A stretch of 64,000 nt of DNA from an uncultured Gammaproteobacteria bacterium (GTDB taxonomy: Bacteria > Patescibacteriota > Microgenomatia > CAZETR01 > Amesbacteraceae), in the NCBI GenBank assembly GCA_964543035.1, contig CAZIVL010000001.1:236159-300158 (forward strand). The letters are read 5' to 3'. A model generated the notes under the pieces. That model was not told the origin of the DNA and ran no database searches. It saw only the letters and a list, made by a program, of their open reading frames with translations. The position numbers were made by a program, and so were the translations under genes. Positions 30,826 through 56,359 of the stretch are shown here, piece after piece (position 1 is the stretch's first letter; the number at the start of each line of letters is the position of its first letter).

Positions 30826-32117
30826 AAAAACTTTTTTTACCAATCCTACTTTTAGCCGGACTGATTTTCCGTTTGATCATCAGTGTTCAAATTTACAGTG
30901 GGGATATAAATAATCACATTTCCTGGGGCAAAGACATTTTGGAGTTTGGCCCGAGCGGTGTATACACTCGCGATTTTGCGTCACCATACAATACGTTGAC
31001 TCCCACTTATCCTCCTATCCCCCTTTTATTTTTTACCATTTCTAAAGCAGCGTTTGATTGGGCAGATAAAACAGTTTGGGATCTAAATTTTAGTGTTCCC
31101 ATATTTCCCTCAAATCTAGTCTTCTTCTTTGAAGATCAAGATACCATGCCAGCGTTCTATAAAGTCTGGGCAATAGCGTCAGACATAGTTATTGCCTACC
31201 TAGTTTTCCAGATAGCAAAAAAACATTTTTCAGACAAATCTAGATGGCCTTACGTTTTTTCAATACTCGTTTTATTTAATCCAGCCTTCTTTTATAACAG
31301 TGCATATTGGGGCCAGATAGAGGCTTTACCCATAATGTTTTTGATACTGGGGTTATATATTTTTTATCAAAAAAGACCAGTCTTGAGCAGTCTGTGTTTT
31401 ATGTTGGCTTTCCTGTCCAAACAGTCATCAATTATTTTTATCCCCATCCTTGCTCTTATGTTTCTTGTCTCGACAGACAAAATCAATATTTTGAAAGGTG
31501 TGATCCTCAGCCTGGTCGTTTTTTGGATTTCCTTTTTGCCTTTTATGAAACCAGCCGATACTCTAGCATTTCCAATTACTACTTATCTCGAAAAGATAAA
31601 ATCAGGCTCAGGCTCAGACTATGTCACAGATCACGCCTTCAACTTCTGGGCAATTCTGACTGGTTTAGGAAAGATCCCCGATGGTCGGATTTTTGAAGGA
31701 GGAATACCTTACCGAGGATGGGGATTAGTGTTTTTTGGTATCGCCTTAATCTTTGTTTTTGCCCCATTACTTAGAAAGAAGATTACTCCTCCCCAGATCT
31801 TTGGTAGTCTTAGCCTGATTAGCATTTCCGCATTTATGTTTCTGACTCGCATGCACGGTCGTTACCTTCAGCCGGCCTTGGCATTTCTTTTACTTTATTG
31901 CATTCATAGGAAAAAAATTCTTCCTGTTTTTATCTATTTATCAATTTTTTACTTTTTAAATCTTTATCACAATTGGTGGGCTCCTCGCATTCCATCCCTA
32001 GTAGATTTTATCTCAAAACAATTAACCATAGATCTATTTATAATAGGGGCAATGATCGGCTTCTCCATAATCTTAGTGGATTATTTCAGATTGTCATACC
32101 ATGAAAAGAACGGTTAA
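30822..32117 (+). CDS. polytopic membrane glycosyltransferase-like protein (GT-C; DUF2029/mannosyltransferase-like)
   Basis: 431 aa. ATGA overlap. DINNHISWGKDILEFG...YPPIPLLFF plus about 10 TM helices. Confidence 0.5.
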   Translation: MKKLFLPILLLAGLIFRLIISVQIYSGDINNHISWGKDILEFGPSGVYTRDFASPYNTLTPTYPPIPLLFFTISKAAFDWADKTVWDLNFSVPIFPSNLVFFFEDQDTMPAFYKVWAIASDIVIAYLVFQIAKKHFSDKSRWPYVFSILVLFNPAFFYNSAYWGQIEALPIMFLILGLYIFYQKRPVLSSLCFMLAFLSKQSSIIFIPILALMFLVSTDKINILKGVILSLVVFWISFLPFMKPADTLAFPITTYLEKIKSGSGSDYVTDHAFNFWAILTGLGKIPDGRIFEGGIPYRGWGLVFFGIALIFVFAPLLRKKITPPQIFGSLSLISISAFMFLTRMHGRYLQPALAFLLLYCIHRKKILPVFIYLSIFYFLNLYHNWWAPRIPSLVDFISKQLTIDLFIIGAMIGFSIILVDYFRLSYHEKNG

Positions 32118-33294
32118 TATTACCTTATTTGCTCTTTTTTTCTATCTTTTTATATCCCCATTCTTTTTTCATCCTGATCTCAAGATCATTTATCACCACT
32201 CCCAATTTCTAACATCCGGAGTAATCAACATTTATAGTTTTTTAAACACACATCCAGAGCACGCTACTCTAGGTCAATTTGTTTATCCCCCCCTGACATA
32301 TCTCGTGTTTGGTACTATTTTTCCAATTGTTCGACTCCTGGCCGGTACTGACTTTGTTAGCTGGCTTGCCCAGGGCAACACCGCCGTTACCACCATTTAT
32401 ATTTTTAGATATCAATTTTTGCTCAAGCTTCCATTAATACTTCTTCATGTTGCCACGGGCTGGTTAATTTCTAAGTTATTTTCGGATTCCAAAGATAAGA
32501 GGATTGCTTTGGCTATCTGGTTTTTTAACCCAATTAGTATTTATGTTGTAGGCATTATTGGCCAATTTGACATTATCCCGGTGTTTTTTTCAGTTCTCTC
32601 ATTAGTTCTTTTTCCCAAAAGGCCATATCTGGCAGCAATTTGCTTGGGCCTGGGAGGAAGCTTAAAAACCTATCCCTTACTTTTGTTACCATTCTTGGGG
32701 ATTGCGGCTTTTTCGTCTTGGCCCAAAAGACTAAGTGTCATGGCGACAGGACTTCTTCCCTACATTCTTCTCATTGCCCCATTTTTGAAGGATCCTAGTT
32801 TTGTTGATAGTGTCTTAGTTTCAGGTTTGTCTCAAAGGCTCTTCCACATGAGCCTCACCACAGGTTTTGACAAATCTATTCTGATTATTCCCGGGGTAAT
32901 AAGTATAATTTTGTTTTATTTTATAAGCCAGGCTGACAAAAAGCCCCTCCTATCAGGATCCTATGCGGCAGTACTCTTGATAGCTTTGGCCGGTTCTCAT
33001 TTTCATCCTCAGTGGACACTTTGGGTGATGCCTTTTGTGACTATCTACCTAGTAAAAAAGCGCGAGTTATGGCCACTGGTTGTATTTTCTGTGGCCTGGA
33101 TTGCAGTTCTTTTGCTTTTTCCAGACAACTTTTTGACTTGGGGAGTAGTCAGTCCGCTTGATCCCCAAGCCTTCAATCTGCCGGCCATTAGCTCAATCTT
33201 GTCTCCCACCCTTCCTTGGGCAAATCTGGCCCAGACCTTCTTTGCTGCTATTTCGCTCTGGATTGCTTACAAATCTATCTCAAAGCATGAATAA
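32101..33294 (+). CDS. DUF2029/GT87-like polytopic membrane glycosyltransferase (paralog of 18188..19372)
   Basis: YPPLTYLVFG, FNPISIYVVGIIGQFD and HFHPQWTLW match 18188..19372. Confidence 0.55.
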   Translation: MKRTVNITLFALFFYLFISPFFFHPDLKIIYHHSQFLTSGVINIYSFLNTHPEHATLGQFVYPPLTYLVFGTIFPIVRLLAGTDFVSWLAQGNTAVTTIYIFRYQFLLKLPLILLHVATGWLISKLFSDSKDKRIALAIWFFNPISIYVVGIIGQFDIIPVFFSVLSLVLFPKRPYLAAICLGLGGSLKTYPLLLLPFLGIAAFSSWPKRLSVMATGLLPYILLIAPFLKDPSFVDSVLVSGLSQRLFHMSLTTGFDKSILIIPGVISIILFYFISQADKKPLLSGSYAAVLLIALAGSHFHPQWTLWVMPFVTIYLVKKRELWPLVVFSVAWIAVLLLFPDNFLTWGVVSPLDPQAFNLPAISSILSPTLPWANLAQTFFAAISLWIAYKSISKHE

Positions 33295-33838
33295 GCTATT
33301 ATATTTATTACCGCTTATTTTTGTCATTGGAGCTCAAAGCTTGGTCTCACTATTCATAAAAAATAAAATTGATTATTCTATAGACGGATCCCTAGCATAC
33401 CCCCTCGAAAAGCCTATGCAAACCAGCTATGCTCCTACACACGCGGGTCTAAACATAATTGTCTTGCGTCTAAAAAACCCCGCTCTTGCCGATGAAAACA
33501 AGTACACATTGAAGCTTTTAAGTGGGAGCGATACTGTGATCAAATCGATCGATTTTGACGCCAGAAATGTGGGAGATCCCGCCGACCTTAAACTTCAGTT
33601 TGATCCATTGGTAAATTCCCAAGAGATTCGGTCCATAAGGCTCGAGCCTGTGGGAACATCTGGAAAATTACACGTATACATTGACGAGAAGGACCGAATC
33701 TCTTTCACTTCTTATTACCGTCGCTCTGGGTTCTCGTTATCATGGCCAGTCTTAAAAGATATTCCCTTCTTTGTCGCCTGGGCGATAGTACTTACGACCA
33801 TTTTTTATTTTAGTACCAAATGGCAAAAACAATCTTAG
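33287..33838 (+). CDS. small bitopic membrane protein, unknown function
   Basis: 183 aa. N-terminal TM or signal sequence (MNKLLYLLPLIFVIGA), a roughly 130-aa hydrophilic domain, then a C-terminal TM. The ORF track lists a longer out-of-context start at 33158. ATG 33287 overlaps the upstream stop (atgaataa). Confidence 0.5.
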   Translation: MNKLLYLLPLIFVIGAQSLVSLFIKNKIDYSIDGSLAYPLEKPMQTSYAPTHAGLNIIVLRLKNPALADENKYTLKLLSGSDTVIKSIDFDARNVGDPADLKLQFDPLVNSQEIRSIRLEPVGTSGKLHVYIDEKDRISFTSYYRRSGFSLSWPVLKDIPFFVAWAIVLTTIFYFSTKWQKQS

Positions 33839-35415
33839 TTCTCATCTTGATTTTAGCAGCTGGGTTACGCACCGTCGGGCTTTCCTCGCATCCGCCTGGG
33901 TTTACACCAGACGAAGCTGGCCTAGGCTACAATGCCTATTCGCTACTTCTTACGGGTCGAGATGAATGGGGAACGGTCTGGTGGCAGCTCCCAGTTACAA
34001 ATCTTCAATCATTTGGAGATTATAAGTTGCCACTATATTCATTCTTGGCAGTTCCCACCATCAAGATATTTGGCCTCAATGAATTTGCCGTCCGGCTCCC
34101 AAATGCCATTTTGGGAACCTTATCGATTCTAGCCGTGTTCCTGTTGGGTTCTCGCATCGGAGGTTCTCGCATCGGACTTTTGTCTGCCACTCTTATGGCT
34201 ATTTCACCATGGTCAATCCAAATGTCCAGAGGAGCGTTCGAGGCGAATCTCGTCTCTCTTTTTGTTCCTCTAGCAATTTATGCATATTTGTCTTCTCGTT
34301 TTATTCAGTCAGCTATTTTTTTTGTTTTAGGAGTTTATACTTACCATTCCGCCAAGATCCTTACCCCTTTGATATTGGTTGCGCTGTTTGTTTACAAACC
34401 AACCAAAAAAATTGCCTTTTTTATGATACTGGGTGTGTTATTGATACCTGCTTTGATTTCTCAAATTGGCCTTGGGGGGAGCAGGTCGTCTGACCTTCTT
34501 ATTTTTAAACCCACCGACAATTGGGAGTATGTGTCTGCCCGCAGGTTTGCAGCCCGTAGTTTCGGAGTTCCGGATACAATCGCCAGGGTATTTTCAAACA
34601 AACTTACCTATGTCGCCACCACTTGGTTTGAGAACTATGCGTCATACCTATCTCCCCAATTTTTATTTACAAATGGTCCATCCGAGGGCACCTACGGCAT
34701 GCTGAGAGGAAGGGGAGTCCTCTATAGATTAGACCTGATCGCAATTTGTATATTCGTAGCTATTTTGATAAAAAATCCCACTCGAAAAAATATTTTATTG
34801 ACGACCCTCATTTTTTTAAGTTTCTTGCCTGCTTCTTTGACCAAAGGAGCGGGATTGGCCGCAAATCGGACAGTCATCGCTTTACCTTTCATTGCGATCG
34901 CGTTGGCGATTGGAGTAGGCAAGTTATCTATGGCACTAAAACCAGCCATTTATATCGTCATGGCTCTATACTGCTTGAGCTTGGTATATTTTGCTTACGA
35001 TTACGTCTATTTTGCAAAGACTAACATGGGCCAAGACATGCACATAGGCAAAAAAGAGTTGTTTGAAAGAACTATGCCCATAGCAGCCGGTTTCAACCAA
35101 ATAAAATTTAGTCGTACTCTTTCCAATCCCCATATTTTCTTTGCCTTTTTCACAGCGACTCCACCCACAGAATACCAAAAAGCAATCGCTCCCTATAAGA
35201 ATCTGAAAAATCATGGAGTAAATTTTGTAGATCAACTGTCCGACTACTCAATTGGCAAATATCATTTTGGTGACTCCCTTGTGGAAAAACCAGTTTCCCA
35301 GCCGACCTTGTTTGTAGGCAAGCCAGATCAATTTGATTCTATATCAGGAGAGTATTTTCATATTGATTATCCCAATGGCACCGAAGCTTACCGAGTTGTA
35401 GAAAAAAAGCCATGA
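33820..35415 (+). CDS. PMT_2/GT39-like GT-C membrane glycosyltransferase
   Basis: TPDEAGLGYNAYSLLLTGRDEWG...SFGDYKLPLY. Contains the 15-nt tandem duplication (GSRIGGSRIG). Confidence 0.8.
   Translation: MAKTILVLILILAAGLRTVGLSSHPPGFTPDEAGLGYNAYSLLLTGRDEWGTVWWQLPVTNLQSFGDYKLPLYSFLAVPTIKIFGLNEFAVRLPNAILGTLSILAVFLLGSRIGGSRIGLLSATLMAISPWSIQMSRGAFEANLVSLFVPLAIYAYLSSRFIQSAIFFVLGVYTYHSAKILTPLILVALFVYKPTKKIAFFMILGVLLIPALISQIGLGGSRSSDLLIFKPTDNWEYVSARRFAARSFGVPDTIARVFSNKLTYVATTWFENYASYLSPQFLFTNGPSEGTYGMLRGRGVLYRLDLIAICIFVAILIKNPTRKNILLTTLIFLSFLPASLTKGAGLAANRTVIALPFIAIALAIGVGKLSMALKPAIYIVMALYCLSLVYFAYDYVYFAKTNMGQDMHIGKKELFERTMPIAAGFNQIKFSRTLSNPHIFFAFFTATPPTEYQKAIAPYKNLKNHGVNFVDQLSDYSIGKYHFGDSLVEKPVSQPTLFVGKPDQFDSISGEYFHIDYPNGTEAYRVVEKKP
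34147..34176 (+). repeat. perfect 15-nt tandem duplication (ggttctcgcatcgga x2) inside the 33820 CDS
   Basis: Direct read of the sequence. In-frame, producing GSRIG-GSRIG in the first periplasmic loop or TM boundary. Confidence 0.8.
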
Positions 35416-37031
35416 AAAAATTTATAGTCCTTGTTTTACTTCTGTCCTTGCCCACGTTCGGCCTCATGCTCAGGCCTGGCATCTTCACAATGCATGATTT
35501 TCATCCATTCAGACTTTTTGAGTTTAATAAATGTATACAAGATGGGATTTTTCCTTGTAGGTGGGCACCCGATGCCGAAAATGGCTATGGAGAGCCCTTG
35601 TTCAATTTTTATGGTCAATTTCCGTACTGGGTAGGGGAGTTATTTGTGCTTTCGGGCTTTGGAATTCTCACTTCCATCAAGATTACATTTATTCTTACTC
35701 TTGTCTTATCCGGATTGGCCATGTATTGGGTGGCATCCAGATATTCAAATTACAAACTCGGCCTACTCGCCTCGCTTTTGTATGTATACGCGCCCTACCG
35801 AGCAGTAGACGTCTGGGTTCGAGGGGCTTTGGGAGAGGCTTTCGCATTTATTCTTTATCCTCTGATTTTTTATTTCTTGGACCAAGCCATCACTGTCCGG
35901 AAATCCAAATACTTTATTCTATTGGCTGTCTTCGTGGCCCTACTCATTATCACGCACAACCTTTCATTCGTGATGTTTGGTCTGGCATTGGGAGCCTGGA
36001 CAATATTCCGCATGATTTCTACTAGGAGTTGGATTGCTATCCCCAATCTATTCTTGTCCGGGATCCTGGCATTACTTTTATCCTCCTTCTATTTATTGCC
36101 AGTTGCCGTGGAGACGTCGCTTATCTCTTTGCAAAGCGCCACCACCGAAGGCTATTACAATTACCAGTTACATTACACGAGTCTTAAGCAGCTTTTTTGG
36201 TCCAGATTTTGGGGCTATGGGGCGTCAGTTTGGAGTGATGGCGACGGCATGAGTTTTTCTGCCGGCCAAATTCAGGCCACAGTATTAGGGGCAGCCCTAA
36301 TCGCCTCCATCATAAGAAGAAATCAGAAAGGTGTGATTCTTTCTCTTTTGGGTGTGCTTTGTTTGTTTATGACCCACGGCAAATCAGAGATTATCTGGAA
36401 ACTCTTGCCCCCTCTGACTTATATTCAGTTTCCCTGGCGTTTTCTGGCTCCCGCCGCCTTCTTCTCTACTCTGGCAGCAGCTACTTCTTTTCATGGTCTT
36501 CGCATCCCCAAAACAATCTTGGCTACAGTCATTATTCTTGTAATTATGACCAATGTAGATTTTTTCCGCCCCGATATCTGGCATGTAACAGACGATGTCA
36601 CATTTTTTTCCGGAAAAAATATGGAATATCAGATGCAAGCCCACAAAGACTTCTGGCCAAAGACGGCAGGTCCTCCTCCTCAATCTCTAGCTCCTACTGA
36701 GGCAGAATTTACTCAAGGATCAGGTATCGTGAAGCAGATCTCAAAAAGATCAGCTTCCATGGTATACGATATCAATATATTTAATGGGCCTTCTACGGTC
36801 GTTTTTCCCGTCGTGTTTTTTCCGGGATGGACTAGTCTTGTAGACGGTGTACAGCAACCAGTATATCCAGATCCCAGTACCGGACATATGGCGATTGATC
36901 TACCAGCAGGGGAGTGGACCGTCGAGCTAAAATTTATAGATACCTGGCCTAGGACGCTTGGCAATGTCATAAGTGCCGGAGCCTTGCTAGGCGTGATCAG
37001 CTTTGTAATTCTAAAGTATGAAAAAAAATAA
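35412..37031 (+). CDS. YfhO-like polytopic membrane protein (GT-C-like), short-form family B (paralog of 7683..9395)
   Basis: MHDFHP...CRWAPDAENGYGEPLFNFY. C-terminal FFPGWTSLVDG. ATGA overlap at the start. Confidence 0.6.
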   Translation: MKKFIVLVLLLSLPTFGLMLRPGIFTMHDFHPFRLFEFNKCIQDGIFPCRWAPDAENGYGEPLFNFYGQFPYWVGELFVLSGFGILTSIKITFILTLVLSGLAMYWVASRYSNYKLGLLASLLYVYAPYRAVDVWVRGALGEAFAFILYPLIFYFLDQAITVRKSKYFILLAVFVALLIITHNLSFVMFGLALGAWTIFRMISTRSWIAIPNLFLSGILALLLSSFYLLPVAVETSLISLQSATTEGYYNYQLHYTSLKQLFWSRFWGYGASVWSDGDGMSFSAGQIQATVLGAALIASIIRRNQKGVILSLLGVLCLFMTHGKSEIIWKLLPPLTYIQFPWRFLAPAAFFSTLAAATSFHGLRIPKTILATVIILVIMTNVDFFRPDIWHVTDDVTFFSGKNMEYQMQAHKDFWPKTAGPPPQSLAPTEAEFTQGSGIVKQISKRSASMVYDINIFNGPSTVVFPVVFFPGWTSLVDGVQQPVYPDPSTGHMAIDLPAGEWTVELKFIDTWPRTLGNVISAGALLGVISFVILKYEKK

Positions 37032-38574
37032 TCTCTTACTACTGACCATTTTGATAATCACGGGTGCCGTATTGCGCTTTGCTTGGCTGGATCAGTTTCC
37101 TCCTAGTCCAAACTGGGATGAAGTATCTTTAGGGTACAACGCATATTCACTCCTTCTCACTGGTCGTGATGAGTGGGGGATGACCCTGCCCACGATTTTT
37201 AGAGCATATGGAGACTTCAAGCTTCCGGGCTACGTGTATTTTCTGACTCCAGTCATCAAAGTACTTGGTCTTTCGACGCCTGGCATCAGATTCCTCTCCG
37301 CATTAGTCGGAGTATTAAGTATTTTTCTAGTCTATTTTCTGGGAATCAGGCTCACAAAAAATAAAATCGTCGCTGGTGTGGCCGCATTCTTTATGTGTAT
37401 TTCACCCTGGAGCTTCTTTGTCTCCCGGGTCGCTCTTGAGGCCAATTTGGGGCTTTTTTTCTTCCTGTTAGGAGTAAGCTTAATTGCTTCCCAGAGATTA
37501 TTTTTGTCAATTTTGCTTTTAGGTCTCTCTGCTTGGACATACAATTCTTTTCGCATATTTACCCCTCTATTCCTAGTTTCATACGTTTTTTTGATGCGAA
37601 AGCACCTAAAAATATCTCTAATTCACTATTTATTATTCATAATTCTCTTTGTCCCCATTTTCATCCAGCTTCTCTCACCCTCGGGCCAAGCCAGATTTTA
37701 TTGGACTACCATACTTGATTCGGGTGCAATTTCTCACATCAACGAGCTTCAGAGTCGCCCAGGGGGCCGGCTTGTTTACAACAAGTTGACCTACTTCGCC
37801 TTTGTATTCACTCAAAATTATTTCCGTCACTTCTCCCCCCAAGAGCTTTTTTTGACAGGACCTACAAATTATCAATTTAGCGTTCCTGAACACGGGCTAT
37901 TTTATTTAGTGACTCTCCCATTTTTTTATCTCGGCCTCACGCAGCTACCCAGGCGAAGAGTTTTTCTGTTATGGCTGATCTTGGGTCCTTTTGCCAGCAG
38001 TGCGACACGTGACTCGCCCCACGTTTTGAGGTCCATCCCACTTTTGCCAGTATATATCTATTCTATTTCTATAGGAATGTTTTTCTTGCATCAAAAATTA
38101 AAGAAGCTTAGGATTCTTCATATTGTCACGGCAGTAAGTCTAGCGCTTGCAGTTCTTTATCTTCGCATTTACACCACGACCTATCCGAGAGACTATTCTT
38201 GGGCCTGGCAATATGGGCATGTGCAATTGGCAGAGTACCTTCAAAAAAATTATGCTAACTACGATCAAATAATTATGACAAAAAGATATGGAGAGCCTCA
38301 CGAGTTTATTAACTTTTTTCTCAAAGTGCCTCCAACAGACTTTCAAAATTCGTCATCAAAAAAATGGGACTATCACGCCAGTTGGTATTGGGTAGATGAA
38401 TTTGCAAAATTTAGGTTTGTAAACGATTGGGAATTACTAGATCAATTAAAATCCCTTGATCCATCCAAAAGATATTTAGTCATTACAAGCCCTGACAATC
38501 CGGCAAGCGGGGATCCTCTACAAGAGATATTATTTTTAGACGGCAAACCGGCATTTTTCATAAATCGACTATGA
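37018..38574 (+). CDS. PMT_2/GT39-like GT-C membrane glycosyltransferase
   Basis: NWDEVSLGYNAYSLLLTGRDEWG...AYGDFKLPGY. Confidence 0.8.
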   Translation: MKKNNLLLLTILIITGAVLRFAWLDQFPPSPNWDEVSLGYNAYSLLLTGRDEWGMTLPTIFRAYGDFKLPGYVYFLTPVIKVLGLSTPGIRFLSALVGVLSIFLVYFLGIRLTKNKIVAGVAAFFMCISPWSFFVSRVALEANLGLFFFLLGVSLIASQRLFLSILLLGLSAWTYNSFRIFTPLFLVSYVFLMRKHLKISLIHYLLFIILFVPIFIQLLSPSGQARFYWTTILDSGAISHINELQSRPGGRLVYNKLTYFAFVFTQNYFRHFSPQELFLTGPTNYQFSVPEHGLFYLVTLPFFYLGLTQLPRRRVFLLWLILGPFASSATRDSPHVLRSIPLLPVYIYSISIGMFFLHQKLKKLRILHIVTAVSLALAVLYLRIYTTTYPRDYSWAWQYGHVQLAEYLQKNYANYDQIIMTKRYGEPHEFINFFLKVPPTDFQNSSSKKWDYHASWYWVDEFAKFRFVNDWELLDQLKSLDPSKRYLVITSPDNPASGDPLQEILFLDGKPAFFINRL

Positions 38575-40175
38575 CAAAAAAGTTGATCATTATTTTTCTG
38601 ATTTTCAGTTTGGGTCTTGGCTTACGCTTGTTCAAGCTCGATATTCGCCCAATAGGATTTACCTGGGATGAGGCAGCTTTAGGCTACAACGCCTATTCGT
38701 TATTTTTGACTGGCCGCGATGAGTATCGAGTGATTTTCCCCGTAGTCCTCAAATCGTTCGGAGATTACAAACCAGGACTCTATGCTTATCTGACTGCTCC
38801 ATCTGTGGCTTTTATTGGTTTGAATGAGCTTGCCACTCGCTTGCCTTCAGCCGTATTAGGATCACTTTTAGTACTCACAGTTTTTCTACTTGCTGGTCTA
38901 TTATTTTCGTATCGAGTTGGCATGTTTGCGGCCATTCTACTGGCCATCAATCCCTGGGCCATTCACTTTTCCCGGGGTGCCTGGGAAGCAAATCTGAGTC
39001 TGTTTCTCACCACCCTCGCCGTCACCCTATATCTAAAATCATACAAAATTCAAAATACGAGATACATGATGCTGTCCTCACTACTCTTCGGCCTGACTTT
39101 TTGGAGTTACCAAGGGGCAAAGCTTATGACTCCTCTCGTCATACTCAGTCTTTTGGTCTTATTTAGACCAAAAAAGATAGTTGTTGTCCCCTGGATTATT
39201 TTTCTAGCAGTCATTTCTCCTGTCATTATTGGTCTCAAAGATCAATCGGGTAGATTACAGGTTTTGAGTTTGTTTAATTACACCAGGTCGCATGAATCGA
39301 TATCTAGGATACAGGATCAAGAGGGTAGTACTAGCCCAGCCTGGGTATTTTCTTTGTTTCACTCCGAGTTGCTCGATCAGACGAGAGGAATTGTGGAGAG
39401 GTATCTAAATCATTTCTCTCCCAGATATCTGTTTTTTGAAGGGGACTGGTCAAACTTAAGGCACACAACCCCTTACTATGGATATTTTCATATCCCAGAG
39501 ATTATCTTTATTTTGGTGGGACTAGTTTATTTGCTAAAAAAGCCCTCTCCTCAGTCGCTCTTAATATTCTTTTGGTTGGTGTTCTCGCCACTGGCTGCCA
39601 GTATCTCCCGGGACATTGTATCGGGTGTTCGCAGTCTGCCTATGGTCATCCCGCTTACTATTGTAGGGGCAATTGGTTTGGCAAAAATTTCTTCAAAAAA
39701 AATTATTTTCTTAAGTCTTTCTCTATCGATGCTATTTTTTGTAGTGTATTACTTAGATTTATATTATGTCCACGCCCCCCATTATTCCGCTTCTGCCTGG
39801 CTGTATCCGTACAAAAGAGCCATCCAGCTGCTAAACAACAATATCAATAGCTATGACCGCGTAATTTTTACCAACACCTTGGGTCAACCTTATATTTACA
39901 TACTTTTTTACAACCAGGTCCACCCTAAGCTTTATCAGCCCTGGGCGAAGCTTCAAGAGAGTAAATCTCAAGACGTGGGCGAAGTAGTGGCCTGGGACAA
40001 ATATTTGTTTCGAAAAGTCGACTGGCCAGCCGAAAGGGGCAGTCACTCAACCATCTTCGTGGGCAATCAGTATGAACTACCAGAACAAGATATGAATCCA
40101 GCGCATCTGGTGCGCTTAGGGGAGATAGAATATCCAAACGGTTTACATGCATTACGGATTGTTGGACTAAAATGA
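38571..40175 (+). CDS. PMT_2/GT39-like GT-C membrane glycosyltransferase
   Basis: TWDEAALGYNAYSLFLTGRDEY...SFGDYKPGLY. ATGA overlap. Confidence 0.8.
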   Translation: MTKKLIIIFLIFSLGLGLRLFKLDIRPIGFTWDEAALGYNAYSLFLTGRDEYRVIFPVVLKSFGDYKPGLYAYLTAPSVAFIGLNELATRLPSAVLGSLLVLTVFLLAGLLFSYRVGMFAAILLAINPWAIHFSRGAWEANLSLFLTTLAVTLYLKSYKIQNTRYMMLSSLLFGLTFWSYQGAKLMTPLVILSLLVLFRPKKIVVVPWIIFLAVISPVIIGLKDQSGRLQVLSLFNYTRSHESISRIQDQEGSTSPAWVFSLFHSELLDQTRGIVERYLNHFSPRYLFFEGDWSNLRHTTPYYGYFHIPEIIFILVGLVYLLKKPSPQSLLIFFWLVFSPLAASISRDIVSGVRSLPMVIPLTIVGAIGLAKISSKKIIFLSLSLSMLFFVVYYLDLYYVHAPHYSASAWLYPYKRAIQLLNNNINSYDRVIFTNTLGQPYIYILFYNQVHPKLYQPWAKLQESKSQDVGEVVAWDKYLFRKVDWPAERGSHSTIFVGNQYELPEQDMNPAHLVRLGEIEYPNGLHALRIVGLK

Positions 40176-41848
40176 AAAAAATACTGCTTATCTTTATTCT
40201 GATCTTGGCTTCAGTTTTGCGTTTGTATGATCTGACTTCTTATCCATCAGGGCTAAATGCCGACGAAGCAGCCTTGGGTTACAACGCTTACTCCATCATG
40301 CTGACCGGGCGCGATGAACATGGGCATTTTCTGCCTATCAACCTTGAATCATTTGGCGATTTCAAGCCCGCCCTTTACTCGTATCTTCTTATCCCGTTTA
40401 TCAAAGTAATGGGTCTGACTGAGCTTGCAGTCCGTCTCCCCTCAGCCATTTTTGGGATACTGGCCGTTTTGTTTATATATTTACTTACCAATCTTGTCAT
40501 CCCGACCGATCCTGAGCCTGCCGAAGGAGAGCGGAGGGATCCCTCGACTCCGCTCGGGATGACAGCTGGGCATGTAGCTGCATTACTTTTGGCAATTTCT
40601 CCTTGGCATCTCCACTTTAGCAGGGGAGCATGGGAGGTCAATGTCGCCACAACCCTTTTATTAATCGGCGTGTGGTTGTTTCTCCGTTGGGCCAGACTCA
40701 AAAATAATTGGTCCATATTTTTTTCGATCTTTTGTTTTTCATTGTCTATGTACACCTATCAATCAACCCGAATTATAGCCCCGCTTATTGGTCTAGGACT
40801 GGCAGCGATTTATTTTAAGGATCTGGCCAGCCGCCCAAAACTAATAATACTTAATTTATTATTTACTTTGATTCTATTATCCCCTCTGGCCTACAACGTA
40901 CTCACCACCGATTCAGCATCTAGATTTTCAGGTGTAGGTTTTACAGCAGACGAGGGTCCCCTCAACCGTATCAAAGAATTTCGTGGCCAACACTCAAATC
41001 CTGCAAGCATAATGGCCCGAATCCTTCACAATCGTGTAGTTATATATTCAATCCAGTTTGCAAAAAATTACCTCGACCATTTCGGAGGAAACTTCTTGTT
41101 TGTAAACGGGGACATCATCCAGAGAAATCGTATTCCAGAGACCGGCCTTCTCTATCTCACCGACTTTATATTTGTAGTTCTCGGACTAATATACTTGATA
41201 CAAAACCTGTCTGCCGGCAGGCAGGGTACTAAATACAAAATACAAGTTATTTTATTGTGGCTTCTCATAGCTCCCATTGCTGCTGCTCTCACCTTTCAGA
41301 CACCCCATGCACTGAGATCCCAAAACATGATAATTCCCATCACGATCCTTACAGCCGCGGGGATCTATTGGATTATAAAAAGATGGCAGACAATCGGGGG
41401 AGTAATTTTAGTTATTTTTTACTTATTCCAGGTGACTAGATATATTCATCAGTACTATGTCCATTATCCAAAAGAGTATCCAGCAGCCTGGGAATTTGGA
41501 TTCAAAGAGGTGGTAGCATATGCCGAGTCTAAAAAAGAAGAGTATGACCGCGTGCTTGTTACCGACAAATATGACCAGCCGTACATTTTGTTTCTGTTTT
41601 ATTCAAAATATCCACCCCACTTGTTTCAAGGACAGCACCAGCTGACAGTCAGAGACAAGTTTAACTTTTCGACTGTCAGAGACTACGACAAATACCATTT
41701 TGAGTCGACTCCCTGGGACAAAGTGCGAGATAATCACTCCAGTCTGATTATAGCCGCTCCAGAGGATATACCAGCAGAAGGGGTAAATGTCGTAAATACG
41801 ATATATTTCCCAAATGGGGAGGAAGCGTTTAAGATAGTCTCAAACTAG
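40172..41848 (+). CDS. PMT_2/GT39-like GT-C membrane glycosyltransferase carrying an in-frame palindromic element insertion
   Basis: NADEAALGYNAYSIMLTGRDEHG...SFGDFKPALY. ATGA overlap. A roughly 20-aa insertion (IPTDPEPAEGERRDPSTPLGMTAGH) relative to its five paralogs coincides with repeat copy 2. Confidence 0.8.
   Translation: MKKILLIFILILASVLRLYDLTSYPSGLNADEAALGYNAYSIMLTGRDEHGHFLPINLESFGDFKPALYSYLLIPFIKVMGLTELAVRLPSAIFGILAVLFIYLLTNLVIPTDPEPAEGERRDPSTPLGMTAGHVAALLLAISPWHLHFSRGAWEVNVATTLLLIGVWLFLRWARLKNNWSIFFSIFCFSLSMYTYQSTRIIAPLIGLGLAAIYFKDLASRPKLIILNLLFTLILLSPLAYNVLTTDSASRFSGVGFTADEGPLNRIKEFRGQHSNPASIMARILHNRVVIYSIQFAKNYLDHFGGNFLFVNGDIIQRNRIPETGLLYLTDFIFVVLGLIYLIQNLSAGRQGTKYKIQVILLWLLIAPIAAALTFQTPHALRSQNMIIPITILTAAGIYWIIKRWQTIGGVILVIFYLFQVTRYIHQYYVHYPKEYPAAWEFGFKEVVAYAESKKEEYDRVLVTDKYDQPYILFLFYSKYPPHLFQGQHQLTVRDKFNFSTVRDYDKYHFESTPWDKVRDNHSSLIIAAPEDIPAEGVNVVNTIYFPNGEEAFKIVSN
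40495..40564. repeat. GC-rich palindromic mini-element, copy 2, in-frame inside the 40172 CDS
   Basis: Perfect 11-bp terminal inverted repeats tgtcatcccga (40495-40505) and tcgggatgaca (40554-40564). Internal gagcggag..ctccgctc stem and gagggatccctc palindrome. It shares about 30 nt (ggagggatccctcgac.c.gctcgggatg) with copy 1. Confidence 0.6.
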
Positions 41849-41849
41849 A

Positions 41850-42626
41850 ATGACCAAAAAAATTCACTTGTCTATCGTACTCGCCACTCGCAATGAAGCC
41901 TCGGTTTTGGACAGATGCCTGGCCAGTGTAAAAGACATAGCAGACGAGATTGTAATAGCAGACGAACATTCTTCCGACGACACAGTAAAGATCGCCAAGT
42001 TTTACAAAGCTCGGGTGATATCAGTAGATCACAACGACAATTTTCACATTACCAAAAATATTGCCATTGATGCCGCAATTGGAAATTGGATACTCCAGCT
42101 TGACGCCGATGAGGTCGTATCTCCCGAACTGGCCAGTGAAATTTCGAAAATTACCGACAACCTACAACCAACAACATATAACGGCTTTTGGATAAACCGT
42201 CGCAACTGGTTTCTCAACCGTTTTTTGACCAAAGGTGGTCAATACCCAGACCCAACTATTAGATTATATAGACGGGACACGGGTCGGCTTCCTGCCCGTG
42301 ACGTCCACGAGCAGGCAAAAGTAGAGGGTAGTATAGGACGCCTCACACACGATCTGTTGCACTACCGAGACGTATCCTTTGAAAAATATATGGATGGTTT
42401 CAATAGGTACAGCACGTTCTTATCACAGCAGATGGCAGACAAAAAAATACCAATAAATGTGCTACAAGCAATTAACTATTTAGCCATCAAACCAGTTAGT
42501 ATCTTTTTCATGATTTATTTTCGTCACTTGGGGTTAGTGGACGGTTTTGCTGGATTTGTCTTCGCTCTATTCTCCGGCCTAATTCACGGAGTCGCTTATA
42601 TAAAACATTGGCAGAGGTCCATATGA
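41850..42626 (+). CDS. GT2 glycosyltransferase with C-terminal TM segment
   Basis: LSIVLATRNEASVL...EIVIADEHSSDDT...LDADE. Hydrophobic C-terminus. Confidence 0.7.
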   Translation: MTKKIHLSIVLATRNEASVLDRCLASVKDIADEIVIADEHSSDDTVKIAKFYKARVISVDHNDNFHITKNIAIDAAIGNWILQLDADEVVSPELASEISKITDNLQPTTYNGFWINRRNWFLNRFLTKGGQYPDPTIRLYRRDTGRLPARDVHEQAKVEGSIGRLTHDLLHYRDVSFEKYMDGFNRYSTFLSQQMADKKIPINVLQAINYLAIKPVSIFFMIYFRHLGLVDGFAGFVFALFSGLIHGVAYIKHWQRSI

Positions 42627-43603
42627 AAAAAATTGGCCTTGTCACCACACCTCTCACTTCAGGACATGCAATCCGAGGTGTAGGTTTTTATACCAAACGC
42701 CTCCTCCCACGCCTCAAAGAGCAGGCTGCTTCGCACGGCCTAGAAATAGTAGACCCGACAACTTCCAGTTTTGACTTAATTCACTATCCATATTTTGATC
42801 TATTTTCTCATACATTACCCATTCTGAAATCCAAAAAAACTGTAGTTACCATCCACGACGTTATCCCTCTGGAGTTTCCAGATCATTACCCGCCTGGATT
42901 CAAGGGTAGCCTCAACCTGTTTTTGCAAAAGCTGTCTCTTTACAATGTCGATAGAGTCATTACCGACTCTTATGCGTCTATAAAGACTATTCGGAAGTAC
43001 CTGGGAGTACCTCATGAAAAGCTAAAGCTAGTGTATCTGGCAGCAGACCCGATATTTAAAAAAGTAAAAAACCCCAAAAACAAATTTCATCTTCCCAAGA
43101 AATTTATTCTCTACGTGGGTGATATAAATTTCAACAAAAATATTCCAAATTTACTTGTAGCAGCAAAGATCACAGGTCTACCGCTTGTTATCGTGGGTAA
43201 GCAAGCGAGTGAGATGCCCAATATGGACTTAAGACACCCAGAGCTTCGCCACCTCTTGGATACAAAGTGGAGTCATGTCATACGTCTTGGCTTCGTATCC
43301 GACGAGGACTTGGTGGACATTTACAATCTGGCTACAGTGTATTGCCAGCCATCATTGTCTGAAGGATTTGGTCTGCCGGTTTTGGAAGCCCTGTCTTGTG
43401 GCACGGCAGTGGCTTGTAGCAACAGATCCTCCTTGCCAGAAATAGCAGGCGATGCCGCTACATATTTTGATCCCGAAGATCCAAACCTGATTGCAGATGC
43501 TATCCAAATGGCCAGTCCAAAAGGATCACAAGATCAGGTCAATAAATTCTCATGGGAAAAAGCAGCCGAAGAGACTCTCCTTACGTACTTAGAAGCGTTA
43601 TGA
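42623..43603 (+). CDS. GT4 (GT-B fold) glycosyltransferase
   Basis: ATGA overlap at 42623-42626. C-terminal EGFGLPVLEALSCGTAVACS. Confidence 0.7.
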   Translation: MKKIGLVTTPLTSGHAIRGVGFYTKRLLPRLKEQAASHGLEIVDPTTSSFDLIHYPYFDLFSHTLPILKSKKTVVTIHDVIPLEFPDHYPPGFKGSLNLFLQKLSLYNVDRVITDSYASIKTIRKYLGVPHEKLKLVYLAADPIFKKVKNPKNKFHLPKKFILYVGDINFNKNIPNLLVAAKITGLPLVIVGKQASEMPNMDLRHPELRHLLDTKWSHVIRLGFVSDEDLVDIYNLATVYCQPSLSEGFGLPVLEALSCGTAVACSNRSSLPEIAGDAATYFDPEDPNLIADAIQMASPKGSQDQVNKFSWEKAAEETLLTYLEAL

Positions 43604-44706
43604 ACACAAAAAGCATTTTCAAGTATTTTCTTCTGTCACAGATACTAATTATTACTATTACTCTTTTTTCTCCTCGGTTCCTAATACTTAGAGAAACATA
43701 TCTAGGTGGTGCCACCCAGACATATCAATCGAACCCTCTTATCTACTCCCGGGGTAATTTTGATGGTATTCATTACATTGCCATTGCCAAAAATAGCTAT
43801 GGCCACCTTCAGCAAGCATTTTTTCCTCTGTATCCCATGACAATTCGATACGCTAATACTTTGTTTGCAAATCCATATTTGTCGGGCATTTTCATATCAA
43901 GTATTTCATTCGTTCTTTCACTAGTAGTCTTTAAGAAATTAATTGCGCTAGATTATTCAGATCAGATCGTGCGACACACTCTTTTATCACTAATTTTTTT
44001 TCCGACCAGCTTTTTCTTTTCATTTGTCTATACCGAAGGGCTATTTTTTCTTCTGATACTTATCTCTTTATATCTTGCCAGGACAAACCGCTGGTGGCTG
44101 GCAGGAGCAGTAGGTGCATTGGCTTCTTATACTAGATTTATAGGCATTTTTCTCATCCCAGCCTTACTGGTCGAGGCCTATTTGCAAAAACGCCTTAATT
44201 TAAAAAACATTTTAGCAATAGGTTTGGTTATTGTAGGCTTAGGATTATTTATGAATTATTTGGGAGGAAGTGTAGGGGACCCTCTCGCATTTATTCATGT
44301 CCAAAAGTATTTTGGCCAGGGTCGTTCTGATTCAATTATACTTTGGCCTCAAGTGGTCTGGAGGTATCTGAAGATGGTAGCTACTGTAAATCAGTCAGAC
44401 CCTTTGTATCTGACCATTATTTTTGAGTTTGGAGTCAGCTTGTTGTTTTCAGTTCTTACATTTTTTTCAGTGCTTAGGGTCAGAGCCAGTTATGCCTTAT
44501 TTGGTTTATTGGCATATATTACTCCTACTTTGACCGGTAGTTTTACATCCATGCCGCGATATGTCTTGGTGTGTTTTTCAAGCTTCGTCTTGTTAGGACA
44601 GATATTGTCAAAACATAGATGGGCAAGACTTATTTATATTCTGTCTTCAGTTATTCTAATGGCAATTTTTCTCACCCTCTTTGTCAGAGGTTACTGGGTT
44701 GCATAA
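43600..44706 (+). CDS. polytopic membrane protein, PIG-V/GT-C mannosyltransferase-like
   Basis: ATGA overlap at 43600-43603. NFDGIHYIAIAKNSYGHLQQAFFPLYP resembles the PIG-V family fDGxHYxxIAxxGY motif. About 9 TM helices. Confidence 0.45.
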   Translation: MNTKSIFKYFLLSQILIITITLFSPRFLILRETYLGGATQTYQSNPLIYSRGNFDGIHYIAIAKNSYGHLQQAFFPLYPMTIRYANTLFANPYLSGIFISSISFVLSLVVFKKLIALDYSDQIVRHTLLSLIFFPTSFFFSFVYTEGLFFLLILISLYLARTNRWWLAGAVGALASYTRFIGIFLIPALLVEAYLQKRLNLKNILAIGLVIVGLGLFMNYLGGSVGDPLAFIHVQKYFGQGRSDSIILWPQVVWRYLKMVATVNQSDPLYLTIIFEFGVSLLFSVLTFFSVLRVRASYALFGLLAYITPTLTGSFTSMPRYVLVCFSSFVLLGQILSKHRWARLIYILSSVILMAIFLTLFVRGYWVA

Positions 44707-44735: not shown

Positions 44736-45515
44736 ATGAAGCCCTATCTATCTGTGGTTTTACCAGCATACAAACAAGAAAAACATATTGTAAAAAATGT
44801 GAGAAGGCTCAAAGAAGTCTTAGAAAAGTTAAATGTAACCTATGAAATAATTAGTGTTTCAGATGGACGTTTAGACAAAACTCAGTCTAATCTAAAAAAA
44901 GCAAAGATGCGAAATGTTATTTCAACAGGTTATGAGCAAAACAGAGGAAAAGGACAAGCAGTGAGGTTTGGTATGGCAATGGCTAGAGGAAAAATAGTTG
45001 GCTTTGTCGATTCAGGTGATCTTGATTACTCAGTTATTCCATTATTATTTGAGCATATGAAATGGTACGAAGCAGACGTGATTCTTGCTTCAAAGAGACA
45101 TCCTGCATCCAAAGTCAGTTATCCTTGGCAAAGAAGAATAATTTCATGGGTATATCAGATTATGGTAAAAATTATGTTCGGGCTAAATCTTAAAGACACA
45201 CAAGTCGGAATGAAGTTTTTTAAGAAAGAAGTTATTGAAAAAGTGCTCCCCAGAATTTTAGTAAAGGAATTTGCTTTCGACATAGAGATGTTAGCCGTCG
45301 CGAATTATCTAGGTTTCAAGAGAATTTACGAGGCTCCAGTAAAATTGTCTCTTGATTTTAACAAAGCCTCATCTGTCATCTCAAAAGGATTCGTACGTAC
45401 AGTTTTTCGCATGATTTGGGATACAATATCTGTATTCTACAGATTAAGGATTCGAAGATACTATGACGATGCAAACAAAAAAAATTGGCAACCCAATATG
45501 TATCTAGAATGGTAA
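44736..45515 (+). CDS. GT2 glycosyltransferase
   Basis: LSVVLPAYKQEKHI...EIISVSDGRLDKT...FVDSGD. Confidence 0.7.
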   Translation: MKPYLSVVLPAYKQEKHIVKNVRRLKEVLEKLNVTYEIISVSDGRLDKTQSNLKKAKMRNVISTGYEQNRGKGQAVRFGMAMARGKIVGFVDSGDLDYSVIPLLFEHMKWYEADVILASKRHPASKVSYPWQRRIISWVYQIMVKIMFGLNLKDTQVGMKFFKKEVIEKVLPRILVKEFAFDIEMLAVANYLGFKRIYEAPVKLSLDFNKASSVISKGFVRTVFRMIWDTISVFYRLRIRRYYDDANKKNWQPNMYLEW

Positions 45516-56330: not shown

Positions 56331-56359
56331 AGTATATAATTAAATATTGCCAGTCACAA
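56331..56359 (-). promoter_or_regulatory. candidate sigma70-like promoter for the minus-strand operon (TTGTGA-17-TATACT on the minus strand) in a 38-nt divergent intergenic region
   Basis: Minus-strand -35 is the revcomp of 56354-56359. Minus-strand -10 is the revcomp of 56331-56336, 10 nt upstream of the 56320 start codon. The same region carries TATATAAT on the plus strand upstream of the 56359 start. Confidence 0.35.

Follow-up and report, generated by a model that had tools for sequence, protein, structure and literature searches.

Tandem GT-C glycosyltransferase genes in a conserved block of Microgenomates may serve one envelope glycoconjugate pathway

Five tandem genes, G1–G5, within a 64-kb stretch of DNA (the whole of which is called the window here) encode, as supported by family, alignment and modelling results, GT-C-fold enzymes: four PMT_2/ArnT-like paralogs and one YfhO-like protein. 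We consider it somewhat probable (about 0.55) that all five are active glycosyltransferases performing non-redundant transfers in one long-conserved envelope glycoconjugate pathway. Judged by sequence comparison, G1, G3, G4 and G5 are old paralogs within an uncharacterized PMT_2/ArnT-like subfamily that occurs throughout the Microgenomates, a class of ultra-small CPR/Patescibacteria, and the block to which they belong probably builds a surface sugar structure.

A first-pass annotation of the same DNA had reported five consecutive GT-C genes with overlaps at their junctions. This was borne out by the ORF listing, in which all five run in tandem on the plus strand and begin with ATG:

33820..35415, +, G1, 531 aa; GT-C glycosyltransferase of a PMT_2-like Microgenomates subfamily, orthogroup G1
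35412..37031, +, G2, 539 aa; YfhO/PTPS_related-type GT-C glycosyltransferase
37018..38574, +, G3, 518 aa; GT-C glycosyltransferase, orthogroup G3
38571..40175, +, G4, 534 aa; GT-C glycosyltransferase, orthogroup G4
40172..41848, +, G5, 558 aa; GT-C glycosyltransferase, orthogroup G5, with a 22-aa in-frame insert

The G1/G2, G2/G3, G3/G4 and G4/G5 overlaps measure 4 (ATGA), 14, 4 and 4 nt, respectively, and the stop of a small upstream gene at 33838 gives a 19-nt overlap with G1. These overlaps had been singled out as a feature of the array. However, overlaps occur at 36 of the window's 45 same-strand junctions (exactly 4 nt at 12 of them), so that overlapping starts and stops are the norm of the window and no peculiarity of G1–G5.

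G1 and G4 matched Pfam PMT_2 (33.3 bits vs. a cut-off of 26.1, 7e-8, and 40.4 bits, respectively), the sole Pfam match of G3 was PF02366 (PMT; 22.9 bits vs. a cut-off of 22.7), and G5 reached PMT_2 at 18.5 bits, under the cut-off. G5 was placed in the PMT_2-like family because it is 33% identical to G4 (E 1e-91), and for no other reason. The earlier description of the array as four PMT_2 genes plus one YfhO-like gene is supported, with uneven backing from Pfam. Pairwise BLASTP alignments among G1, G3, G4 and G5 covered the full length at 29–33% identity (E 1e-48 to 1e-91; 31% for G3 against each of the others), a similarity that on these scores is far above chance. Two further loci of the window hold members of this group:

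29185..30825, +, further PMT_2-like subfamily paralog, 546 aa; Pfam PMT_2 1.1e-12; 30–31% identical to G1 and G3–G5
12413..14613, +, small membrane protein (12413–13021) and sixth subfamily paralog (13006–14613)

The product of the 12413 gene, previously read as a PMT_2 fragment, gave no Pfam match, and its similarity to G3 was weak (E 0.006) and lay in the middle part of that protein. Five other genomes have a homolog directly 5′ of the 13006 ortholog, and for this reason it looks more like a conserved membrane protein of approximately 200 aa than like a decayed fragment.

The N-terminal loop motif described in the first-pass annotation proved real: D31, E32, G36, Y40, S41, T45, G46 and D48 (G1 numbering, with the DE motif at residues 31–32) are invariant in the six window paralogs. 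Further, the same paralogs show no variation at the DE pair just past TM1, the second D in the catalytic loop EL1, D65, R90, R135, R228 and R354 (G4 numbering), positions that are at least 95% conserved across the four orthogroups. Each of G1–G5 aligned over its full length to orthologs in dozens of genomes; all are intact and none is a pseudogene.

Structure models, made for G4 and G2, showed a predicted GT-C fold in both. The solved structure nearest to the PMT_2-like subfamily was found at E 2.4e-4 by sequence profile, while in structure comparisons ArnT, STT3, Pmt4 and ALG12 lay at roughly equal distance. A GT39/protein-mannosyltransferase label is not supported, in view of this equidistance and of the missing MIR domain. 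The best NCBIfam match of G4 (E 3e-15, residues 6–374), G1, G5 and the 29185 and 13006 proteins was TIGR03663 (Agl23), but no score exceeded 56 bits, far from the 126 bits that the family requires.

G2 matched Pfam PTPS_related (50.8 bits, 1.2e-13) and YfhO (37.1 bits, 1.7e-9), each over its own cut-off, and thus resembles, also in its modelled GT-C fold, the YfhO-type enzymes of teichoic acid glycosylation in Bacillus and Listeria. It differs from them in its length of 539 aa, in a YfhO match restricted to profile positions 63–382 of 835, and in having its own β-sandwich domain at the C-terminus, with one last TM helix behind it (AF2 model, pLDDT 91.7). Foldseek matches of this model included AftD, AglB, STT3 and AftA; by sequence, G2 had no match in the PDB. 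The window carries one paralog of G2:

7683..9395, +, G2 paralog, YfhO/AftD-like GT-C, 570 aa; 33% identical to G2 (E 3.5e-96)

G1 and G3 are both present in 58 genomes; of these, 26 have G2 in the slot between them (22 have G2 alone) and 23 have nothing there. Homologs of the 7683 gene occupy this slot in some genomes. The 12413–13006 pair lies there in L028, L052 and L054; L070 and L081 have it between G3 and G4.

Four genes follow the array:

41850..42626, +, GT2 glycosyltransferase, 258 aa; Pfam Glycos_transf_2 4e-19; two C-terminal TM segments (204–245)
42623..43603, +, cytoplasmic GT4 (GT-B fold) glycosyltransferase; Pfam Glycos_transf_1 1.4e-24; start set from the L001 gene call
43600..44706, +, small GT-C-like membrane protein, 368 aa, ~10–12 TM segments; conserved 3′ of GT4
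44736..45515, +, soluble DPM1/GtrB-like GT2, 259 aa; PDB matches GtrB 5ekp (3e-10) and DPMS 5mlz (2.4e-7 over residues 5–206)

The order G3-G4-G5-GT2-GT4-GT-C is kept in 81 other genomes, with loci from Amesbacteria, Woesebacteria, Shapirobacteria, Daviesbacteria and Blackburnbacteria. Among 80 loci taken as best matches to G4, a sample biased towards block-bearing genomes, G3 lay immediately 5′ of G4 in 73/78 and G5 immediately 3′ in 74/76; GT2 came next after G5 in 66/71, G5-GT2-GT4 were consecutive in 54/66 and G5-GT2-GT4-GT-C in 42/64. G1, G3, G4 and G5 share 29–33% identity with each other vs. 40–63% with the orthologs at matching positions in the nearest relatives (L003, L005 and L007); overall, positional orthologs of G1 ranged from 31 to 50% and orthologs of G5 from 40 to 70%. 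In a tree of 20 sampled genomes, each of the four was monophyletic with one member per genome (18 members in the G1 clade, 21 in the G3 clade). Best hits together with this single neighbor-joining tree, computed without bootstrap support, showed one-to-one orthology of G1 and G3–G5. Across the class, with at least five Microgenomates candidate phyla represented, the block has a fixed gene order in which the G1–G3 slot alone varies. It is thus no hypervariable expansion, nor one specific to a lineage. The expansion previously proposed for this organism does not agree with paralogs this old, and one-per-genome clades and a fixed order suit fixed, non-redundant steps of one pathway better than the proposed decoration of many different surface targets. 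Conserved order could also stem from a protein complex or simply from the tight gene packing of these small genomes, in a window where same-strand junctions overlap so widely.

Divergence between the paralogs is greatest away from the catalytic loop. For the middle extracytoplasmic region (226–309) and the C-terminal domain (428–534), identity was 0.39–0.53 within orthogroups and 0.24–0.26 between them, as compared with 0.66–0.70 and 0.52 in EL1. In line with the earlier claim that the C-terminal domains diverge more, the window paralogs are 59% identical in the N-terminal loop vs. 26% in the C-terminal domain. Such divergence fits differing acceptor specificities, as had been suggested, and because these two regions differ between paralogs and are conserved within orthogroups, we infer non-redundant extracytoplasmic transfers. 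With a polyprenyl-phosphate-linked sugar as donor, G1–G5 would act on the outer side of the cytoplasmic membrane and transfer the sugar onto an acceptor there, each paralog, with a specificity of its own, serving a separate acceptor position or linkage of one conserved envelope glycoconjugate as the common product. Their putative partners would be the downstream GT2, GT4, small GT-C and DPM1-like GT2 and, within the island, an ArnC-like sugar-carrier synthase, a Wzx-type flippase and many cytoplasmic GT2/GT4 enzymes.

The block sits in an island that spans the 64-kb window. Approximately 20 GT-C-like genes occupy 48% of its bases, so that eight PMT_2 loci within 30 kb, as formerly counted, was too low a figure. 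Further genes upstream of G1 include:

26348..27349, +, ArnC/GtrB-type polyprenyl-phosphate glycosyltransferase, 333 aa; two C-terminal TM segments
30822..32117, +, GT87/EpsG-like GT-C membrane protein, 431 aa, 10 TM segments
32101..33294, +, GT87/EpsG-like GT-C membrane protein, 397 aa, 10 TM segments
33287..33838, +, small protein adjoining G1, 183 aa, with a TM segment at either end

The 26348 protein matched ArnC (2e-44) and GtrB (4e-30) of the PDB over its full length, and NCBIfam PRK10714 at 176 bits, below the cut-off. Its gene appears to be the clearest donor synthase of the island and lends support to the earlier suggestion of Und-P-linked sugars. The 44736 GT2, whose best-hit homolog lies downstream in most loci, resembles polyprenyl-phosphate hexose synthases and is a candidate donor synthase; the solved chains nearest to the 41850 GT2 were GmaR and SunS, not GtrB or ArnC. 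The window copy of the 43600 protein gave no Pfam match and an NCBIfam AZOBR_p60025 match under the threshold, while its orthologs have a recorded Mannosyl_trans2 (PF04188) match (weak in L003 and L004, unmarked in L005). Orthologs of the 29185 gene and homologs of the 30822 gene, the latter with weak GT87 and EpsG matches, lie 5′ of G1 in many loci; the 32101 protein is 28% identical to that of a GT87-like gene at 18188. The 33287 protein matched no family in Pfam-type and NCBIfam profile searches, and has homologs at 27–35% identity in five genomes (L012, L018, L030, L051, L077). The window also contains a Wzx-like flippase gene at 9362 (Polysacc_synt_3, 5.5e-45), an AftD-like gene at 56347, and GT2 and GT4 genes of Leloir type that are co-linear with G1–G5. 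The scanned ORFs of the window yielded neither an initiating phosphoglycosyltransferase nor a flippase of GtrA type, nor did the window show an identifiable MATE flippase.

The closest comparison for the proposed pathway is provided by mycobacterial PimE, MptA-C, EmbA-C and AftA-D and the ER-lumenal ALG3/9/12/6/8/10 enzymes, serial GT-Cs that act extracytoplasmically on one lipid- or wall-linked glycan with polyprenyl-phosphate sugars as donors. AftD, AftA, AftB, EmbC, ALG9 and ALG12 were among the structural matches of the modelled proteins; however, there is no sequence-level orthology, and those genes are mostly scattered, in contrast with the tight array of close family members found here. 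ArnT (GT83; Und-P-L-Ara4N:lipid A transferase; PDB 5EZM/5F15) is a single enzyme, whereas the window has four to six paralogs in a row that are 12–13% identical to it, and G1–G5 do not match the NCBIfam ArnT equivalog. CPR bacteria are thought to have no outer membrane, and lipid A is therefore probably not the acceptor. Unlike the protein O-mannosyltransferases (GT39; Pmt1/2/4, bacterial Pmt), the window paralogs have no MIR domain and are co-operonic with Leloir-type glycosyltransferases; most PMT chains aligned in Foldseek over ~250–260 N-terminal residues only, and a protein acceptor is only putative. Three-component systems (GtrA/GtrB/GtrX; GT136, PMC11127046) share the logic of a GT2-made polyprenyl-phosphate sugar that is flipped and transferred outside by a GT-C, and both a candidate synthase and GT-Cs are present in the window. 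Those modules contain one GT-C and are typically accessory or variable, and the window has at least four GT-C paralogs in a series fixed across the class and no identified GtrA-type or MATE flippase.

The four ArnT-like paralogs RgtA-D of Rhizobium each add GalA to a different LPS position. Together with the paralog-specific divergence of the extracytoplasmic regions, the PMT/PMT_2 matches and a DE loop motif typical of protein O-mannosyltransferases, this precedent makes it possible, although clearly less probable than one shared pathway, that each paralog independently modifies a different surface target, either proteins, in a PMT-like manner, or polymers. Three-component systems, which decorate finished glycans (PMC11127046), point the same way. 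Such decorators are usually scattered and variable, yet one slot alone varies in the block, and G3-G4-G5 are co-retained in strict co-linearity with a cytoplasmic GT2, a GT4 and another GT-C across the class; the lack of a MIR domain and the equal structural closeness of ArnT, STT3 and ALG12 also argue against this reading.

PMTs act as dimers, and EmbA-EmbB is a heterodimer; solved structures of both were among the structural matches. One-to-one co-retention in fixed order, and coupled overlaps that would favor matched expression levels, might thus reflect a hetero-oligomeric GT-C complex in which some subunits mainly bind the acceptor or act as scaffold. This appears unlikely, as all four orthogroups have kept the motif of the acidic loop along with the conserved arginines, so that none looks like a dead subunit, and overlaps pervade the window. 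Slightly more doubtful still is that one or more paralogs are translocators of lipid-linked sugars rather than transferases. For archaeal Agl23, translocation of lipid-linked glycans has been reported in a liposome system (PMC11182771), TIGR03663 is the recurrent best NCBIfam match, and a GtrA-type flippase was not seen; however, the TIGR03663 scores fall far short of the cut-off and may reflect mere shared GT-C ancestry, and all orthogroups strictly keep the catalytic DE motif. Similar-sized tandem genes and the weak Pfam scores of G3 and G5 could be read as a recent lineage-specific or hypervariable duplication partly decayed to pseudogenes, a reading effectively refuted by paralogs only ~30% identical, by closer orthologs in the same order in distant genomes, and by five intact ORFs.

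A GC-rich palindromic element was also observed, in frame, within G5 and within the gene at 7683:

40495..40563, +, palindromic element copy 1, in frame in G5; encoded insert IPTDPEPAEGERRDPSTPLGMT
8167..8224, +, palindromic element copy 2, in frame in the 7683 gene; repeat families D7 and D13

The G5 copy contains a perfect 10-bp inverted repeat (GTCATCCCGA...TCGGGATGAC), which was matched in 0 of 100 shuffles. Its insert is missing from all five paralogs, and the closest G5 orthologs carry either no insert or a different one at the same site. Similarly, the 8167 element is missing from eight relatives of the 7683 protein.

The array consists of five consecutive genes, as the first-pass annotation had claimed, and all five were recovered as + strand open reading frames (ORFs) by mechanical ORF listing:

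33820-35415, + strand: G1, 531 aa
35412-37031, + strand: G2, 539 aa
37018-38574, + strand: G3, 518 aa
38571-40175, + strand: G4, 534 aa
40172-41848, + strand: G5, 558 aa

Successive genes overlap by 4 (ATGA), 14, 4 and 4 nt, and the small gene upstream of G1 ends at 33838, 19 nt inside G1. Such overlaps had been put forward as a mark of the array; however, they are the rule throughout the window, where an overlap occurs at 36 of 45 same-strand junctions (exactly 4 nt in 12), and therefore the array is not singled out by them. A promoter and terminator scan of the 28-46 kb region was uninformative on operon boundaries, with counts not beyond the shuffled level (42 vs. 37.6 and 18 vs. 16.5). G1, G3, G4 and G5 are pairwise 29-33% identical over their full length (E values from 1e-48 to 1e-91), and two further window genes, at 29185 and 13006, belong to the same subfamily. 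The N-terminal loop motif described earlier was found again in the alignment of these six paralogs, where D31, E32, G36, Y40, S41, T45, G46 and D48 are invariant. G2 is unrelated to the other four at this identity level, its paralog being the gene at 7683 (33% identity, E 3.5e-96).

The conservation of the array was analyzed among its relatives. G4 shares 45-74% identity with its best homologs, of which those with a named source belong to Candidatus Amesbacteria, the Microgenomates group and the Patescibacteria group. At least 456 related stretches were detected in a one-genome-per-species scan, and the best 80 loci, which were used here, come from Amesbacteria, Woesebacteria, Shapirobacteria, Daviesbacteria, Blackburnbacteria and further Microgenomates. 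Many third-party MAG records carrying the block (among them L009, L012, L013, L017 and L018) are titled ‘uncultured Gammaproteobacteria bacterium’, which, given their gene content, appears to be a placeholder or a labelling error.

Synteny was counted over 81 non-redundant loci. G3 adjoins G4 upstream in 73 of 78 loci and G5 adjoins it downstream in 74 of 76; a 258-aa GT2 gene comes next after G5 (66/71), followed by a GT4 gene (54/66) and, after the latter, by a small GT-C gene (42/64). In three relatives, genes in the same position were 40-63% identical to the window gene and about 30% to the other paralogs. The phylogeny of the paralogs, a check proposed with the first-pass annotation, was computed by neighbour joining from 114 proteins of the subfamily, those of the window and of 20 genomes: G1 (18 members), G3 (21), G4 (21) and G5 (21) formed separate clades, with one member per genome each. 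The slot between G1 and G3 was occupied as follows in a census of 58 genomes with both genes:

Occupancy of the G1-G3 slot
empty: 23 genomes
G2 alone: 22 genomes
G2 and another gene: 4 genomes
the 12401/12413 and 13006 pair: 3 genomes
two 7683-like genes: 2 genomes

Synteny, orthogroup clades and slot census together indicate that the array is no expansion restricted to this organism, as had been supposed, since the paralogs are ancient, of fixed order over the 81 loci and present once per genome. Nor is the locus hypervariable among relatives: the order is kept and only the G1-G3 slot varies. Judged from these comparisons, the array is an ancient fixed block with a single variable cassette position, and the order of its core has been kept across at least five candidate phyla. 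A recent duplication, or a set of pseudogenes, was ruled out by the block order, by the clades and by positional orthologs that are closer than paralogs, and its probability is practically nil. Since the relatives are either identical (L001, L002) or share at most 74% protein identity, synonymous sites are probably saturated; in place of dN/dS, the evidence taken for purifying selection was that about 80 genomes have intact orthologs of full length.

The PMT_2 label was upheld by profile searches for two of the four paralogs only. Against PMT_2 (PF13231, cut-off 26.1 bits), G1 (33.3) and G4 (40.4) scored above the threshold but G5 (18.5) scored below it, while G3, without a PMT_2 match, was recognized by PF02366 alone (22.9 bits vs. 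a cut-off of 22.7, a margin of 0.2). G2 matched PTPS_related (PF10131) with 50.8 bits (cut-off 26.4) and YfhO (PF09586) with 37.1 bits (cut-off 28.5), the latter spanning just profile positions 63-382 of 835. In G1, G3, G4 and G5 the first extracytoplasmic loop opens, just behind TM1, with an acidic DE motif (residues 31-34), which is at least 95% conserved in each of the four orthogroups; where these paralogs have their acidic motif, G2 has an invariant D29.

Narrower families were also considered. No Pfam match to the MIR domain was obtained in the array proteins, and the loop region 222-309 in the G4 model is helical, without a beta-trefoil. Bacterial Pmts also lack MIR, and its absence therefore excludes the eukaryotic PMT type only. 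The window encodes no candidate substrate protein for protein O-mannosylation. ArnT proper (GT83) was rejected on the NCBIfam equivalog PRK13279 (cut-off 567 bits), which gave no match with G1-G5 and 21.6 bits with the 13006 paralog. Oligosaccharyltransferases (STT3/PglB/AglB) were discarded as well: the WWDYG motif is absent from G1-G5 and the other paralogs, and the archaeo_STT3 model reached 17-23 bits vs. a cut-off of 450. Scores for TIGR03663 (Agl23; cut-off 126.25 bits) were 56.1 for G4, 26.4 for G1 and 17.7 for G5. By these tests, strict-sense membership in the GT39, ArnT, OST or Agl23 families is not supported.

Structure predictions were made for G4 and G2. For G4, an AlphaFold model based on 72 homologs (pLDDT 93, pTM 0.92) shows a multi-helix membrane core and an alpha/beta C-terminal domain of about 105 residues. 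Its multi-pass core is superposable on solved GT-C enzymes (GT-C_A class), with which Foldseek concurs for G4, and the sole solved relative of G4 by sequence profile is ArnT (E 2.4e-4). In the G2 model (45 homologs, pLDDT 91.7), the GT-C core is accompanied by a beta-sandwich domain (residues ~432-508) and a last TM helix; the structural matches of G2 were AftD, AglB, STT3 and AftA, and a search of the PDB by sequence gave no match for it. All five array proteins are thereby predicted to have the GT-C fold.

The regions in which the paralogs differ were located by comparing identity within and between orthogroups (G4 numbering):

Identity by protein region
23-70, EL1 loop: within orthogroups 0.66-0.70, between 0.52
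226-309, middle extracytoplasmic region: within 0.46-0.53, between 0.24
428-534, C-terminal domain: within 0.39-0.51, between 0.26

The C-terminal domain thus diverges more than EL1, as had been stated, but the middle region diverges at least as much. D33, E34, D50, D65, R90, R135, R228 and R354, among other residues, are at least 95% conserved in all four groups. Shared machinery for catalysis and donor binding, joined to outer regions specific to each orthogroup, is the pattern expected if these enzymes were to perform the same chemistry on different acceptors, and the proposal of diversified acceptor specificity is supported by the conserved EL1 as opposed to the orthogroup-specific outer regions.

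The window as a whole is a single large glycosylation island, whose genes lie almost exclusively on the + strand and cover 98% of the sequence. About 20 GT-C-type genes (PMT_2-, YfhO-, GT87-, PIG-V- and AftD-like ones counted) occupy 48% of the 64 kb, together with at least 14 GT2 and 4 GT4 genes, a Wzx-type flippase (9362), an asparagine-synthase/AsnB-like amidotransferase (27350) and methyltransferases. Further genes are the following:

26348: gene matching ArnC (2e-44) and GtrB (4e-30) over its full length, with two C-terminal TM segments
44736: DPM1-like GT2 with GtrB and archaeal DPMS catalytic-domain matches, kept downstream of the block
54829, - strand: 2OG-Fe(II) oxygenase
60544, - strand: carbamoyltransferase

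The products of 26348 and 44736 are plausible candidate donor synthases. The gene at 12413-13021 had been taken for a PMT_2 fragment, which was not borne out: it has no family match and matches only the middle of G3 weakly (E 0.006). Since homologs of its product (32-37% identity) lie directly upstream of the 13006 ortholog in five genomes (L028, L052, L054, L070, L081), it looks like a conserved small partner gene for a membrane protein of about 200 aa rather than a decayed copy. No significant Pfam or (where scanned) NCBIfam match was obtained for five ORFs (10719-12416, 45485-47311, 24662-25189, 52378-52833 and 62801-63349), among which a sub-threshold DUF3863 match of the 45485 ORF (E 0.004) was the sole one. 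The 10719 gene encodes about 9 TM segments; the 45485 product has one N-terminal TM segment and a C-terminus weakly related to 10719, and its gene is kept downstream of the block in many genomes.

GT-C enzymes use a polyprenyl-phosphate sugar as donor and react on the outer face of the membrane. From this general knowledge and the context genes, such a donor is plausible for the array enzymes, which may work like ArnT- or PMT-type GT-C transferases. In our main reading (probability about 0.55), a glycan would be begun in the cytoplasm and flipped across the membrane, after which several GT-C enzymes, each with a step of its own, would lengthen or branch it on the outer side; the acceptor could be a lipid-linked glycan, a wall polymer or a protein. 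This route is suggested because genes for cytoplasmic GT2 and GT4 enzymes run co-linear with those for the GT-C enzymes, because a Wzx-type flippase lies in the same island and because the four paralogs are retained one-to-one. The first-pass annotation, whose observation was confirmed and whose interpretation was right in part only, had instead seen independent decorators, each with a different target. The divergence pattern fits such decorators, but strict co-retention fits them less well, and we regard them as rather unlikely. Co-retention also agrees with a hetero-oligomeric complex of the paralogs; yet catalytic residues are kept in all of them, which makes a complex of this kind improbable. 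A role as flippase for some paralogs, an activity reported for Agl23 (PMC11182771), would be in keeping with the sub-threshold TIGR03663 matches, but as these scores are low and the DE is strictly conserved, this is more improbable still.

Serial extracytoplasmic extension might be part of something larger, in that the block, in the order G1-(variable slot)-G3-G4-G5-GT2-GT4-GT-C-GT2, the Wzx-type flippase and the sugar-carrier synthases could form an ER-like, bacterial assembly line for a lipid-linked glycan, which we put forward tentatively. Leloir-type steps in the cytoplasm would come first, then the flip, and last a series of ordered GT-C steps on the outside. The same caution applies to the product of the assembly line, conceivably a class-specific envelope glycoconjugate that would be defining, and possibly essential, for the Microgenomates surface, with the slot giving rise to lineage differences. 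If true, the assembly line would mean that a major envelope polymer has so far gone unrecognised in a large section of the bacterial tree whose members are uncultivated.

The system resembles the three-component glycosylation modules (PMC11127046), from which it differs in having at least four serial GT-C paralogs fixed across a class; in its logic it is closer to the mycobacterial mannan/arabinan enzymes or to the ER-lumenal ALG series. With regard to the three-component scheme (GT2 synthase, GtrA/MATE and GT-C), synthase candidates are present and GT-C genes plentiful, and among the scanned window ORFs (at least 150 aa) neither GtrA nor a MATE flippase was detected, the Wzx-like MOP protein at 9362 being the only flippase. 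In an open-literature search no description of the block was found, an absence that is not proof of novelty, and the portions of PMC7143001 and PMC11665869 retrieved by term searches do not describe it; the nearest remark, in the former, credits a single Microgenomates genome with ‘29 glycosyl transferase genes’. Taken by themselves, the genes belong to a known enzyme superfamily and are unremarkable members of it; their class-wide tandem arrangement and the extreme GT-C density are noteworthy and, as far as could be found, undescribed.

Complete genomes of the relatives measure 0.6-0.9 Mb. CPR/Patescibacteria have tiny genomes and presumably live attached to other cells, so the genes that they retain are informative. 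That about half of the window is devoted to GT-C enzymes and that the core order is conserved both point towards a complex glycoconjugate of the cell surface, conserved and synthesised extracytoplasmically; to our knowledge, none of this kind has been described for these organisms. The four orthogroup definitions and the synteny signature can be used in genome surveys, and the likely specificity-setting protein regions and a defined gene set are available for heterologous reconstitution. The organisms being uncultivated, the practical importance is at present limited.

G5 carries a 22-aa insert absent from all paralogs and encoded by a GC-rich element (40495-40563) bounded by a perfect 10-bp inverted repeat. 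A second copy (8167-8224) lies in frame in the 7683 gene, so that the element, of about 55-73 bp with arms GTCATCCCGA / TCGGGATGAC and core GGAGGGATCCCTCGAC, is in frame in two GT-C genes of the window. It resembles the in-frame palindromic elements of Rickettsia; a literature search turned up no account of them from CPR genomes. The stability of the RNA fold of the window's element was not significantly above that of shuffled sequence (z -1.45). Orthologs of G5 (L007, L009, L010, L014, L019) bear differing inserts in the same loop (residues ~110-135, window ~40500-40575), e.g., ...NPSPxxGEGxxRGEV..., suggesting that this loop may be a hot spot of independent in-frame insertions. The two conserved blocks of the element have exact matches in 47 metagenome stretches (L089-L135), several with Hainich (groundwater) sample names. 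With a relaxed pattern including the right arm, 35 metagenome copies were collected besides the 2 of the window; at least one reading frame is stop-free through the element in all 37, and 22 of them lie within stop-free stretches of at least 149 codons, the longest reaching 1372 codons.
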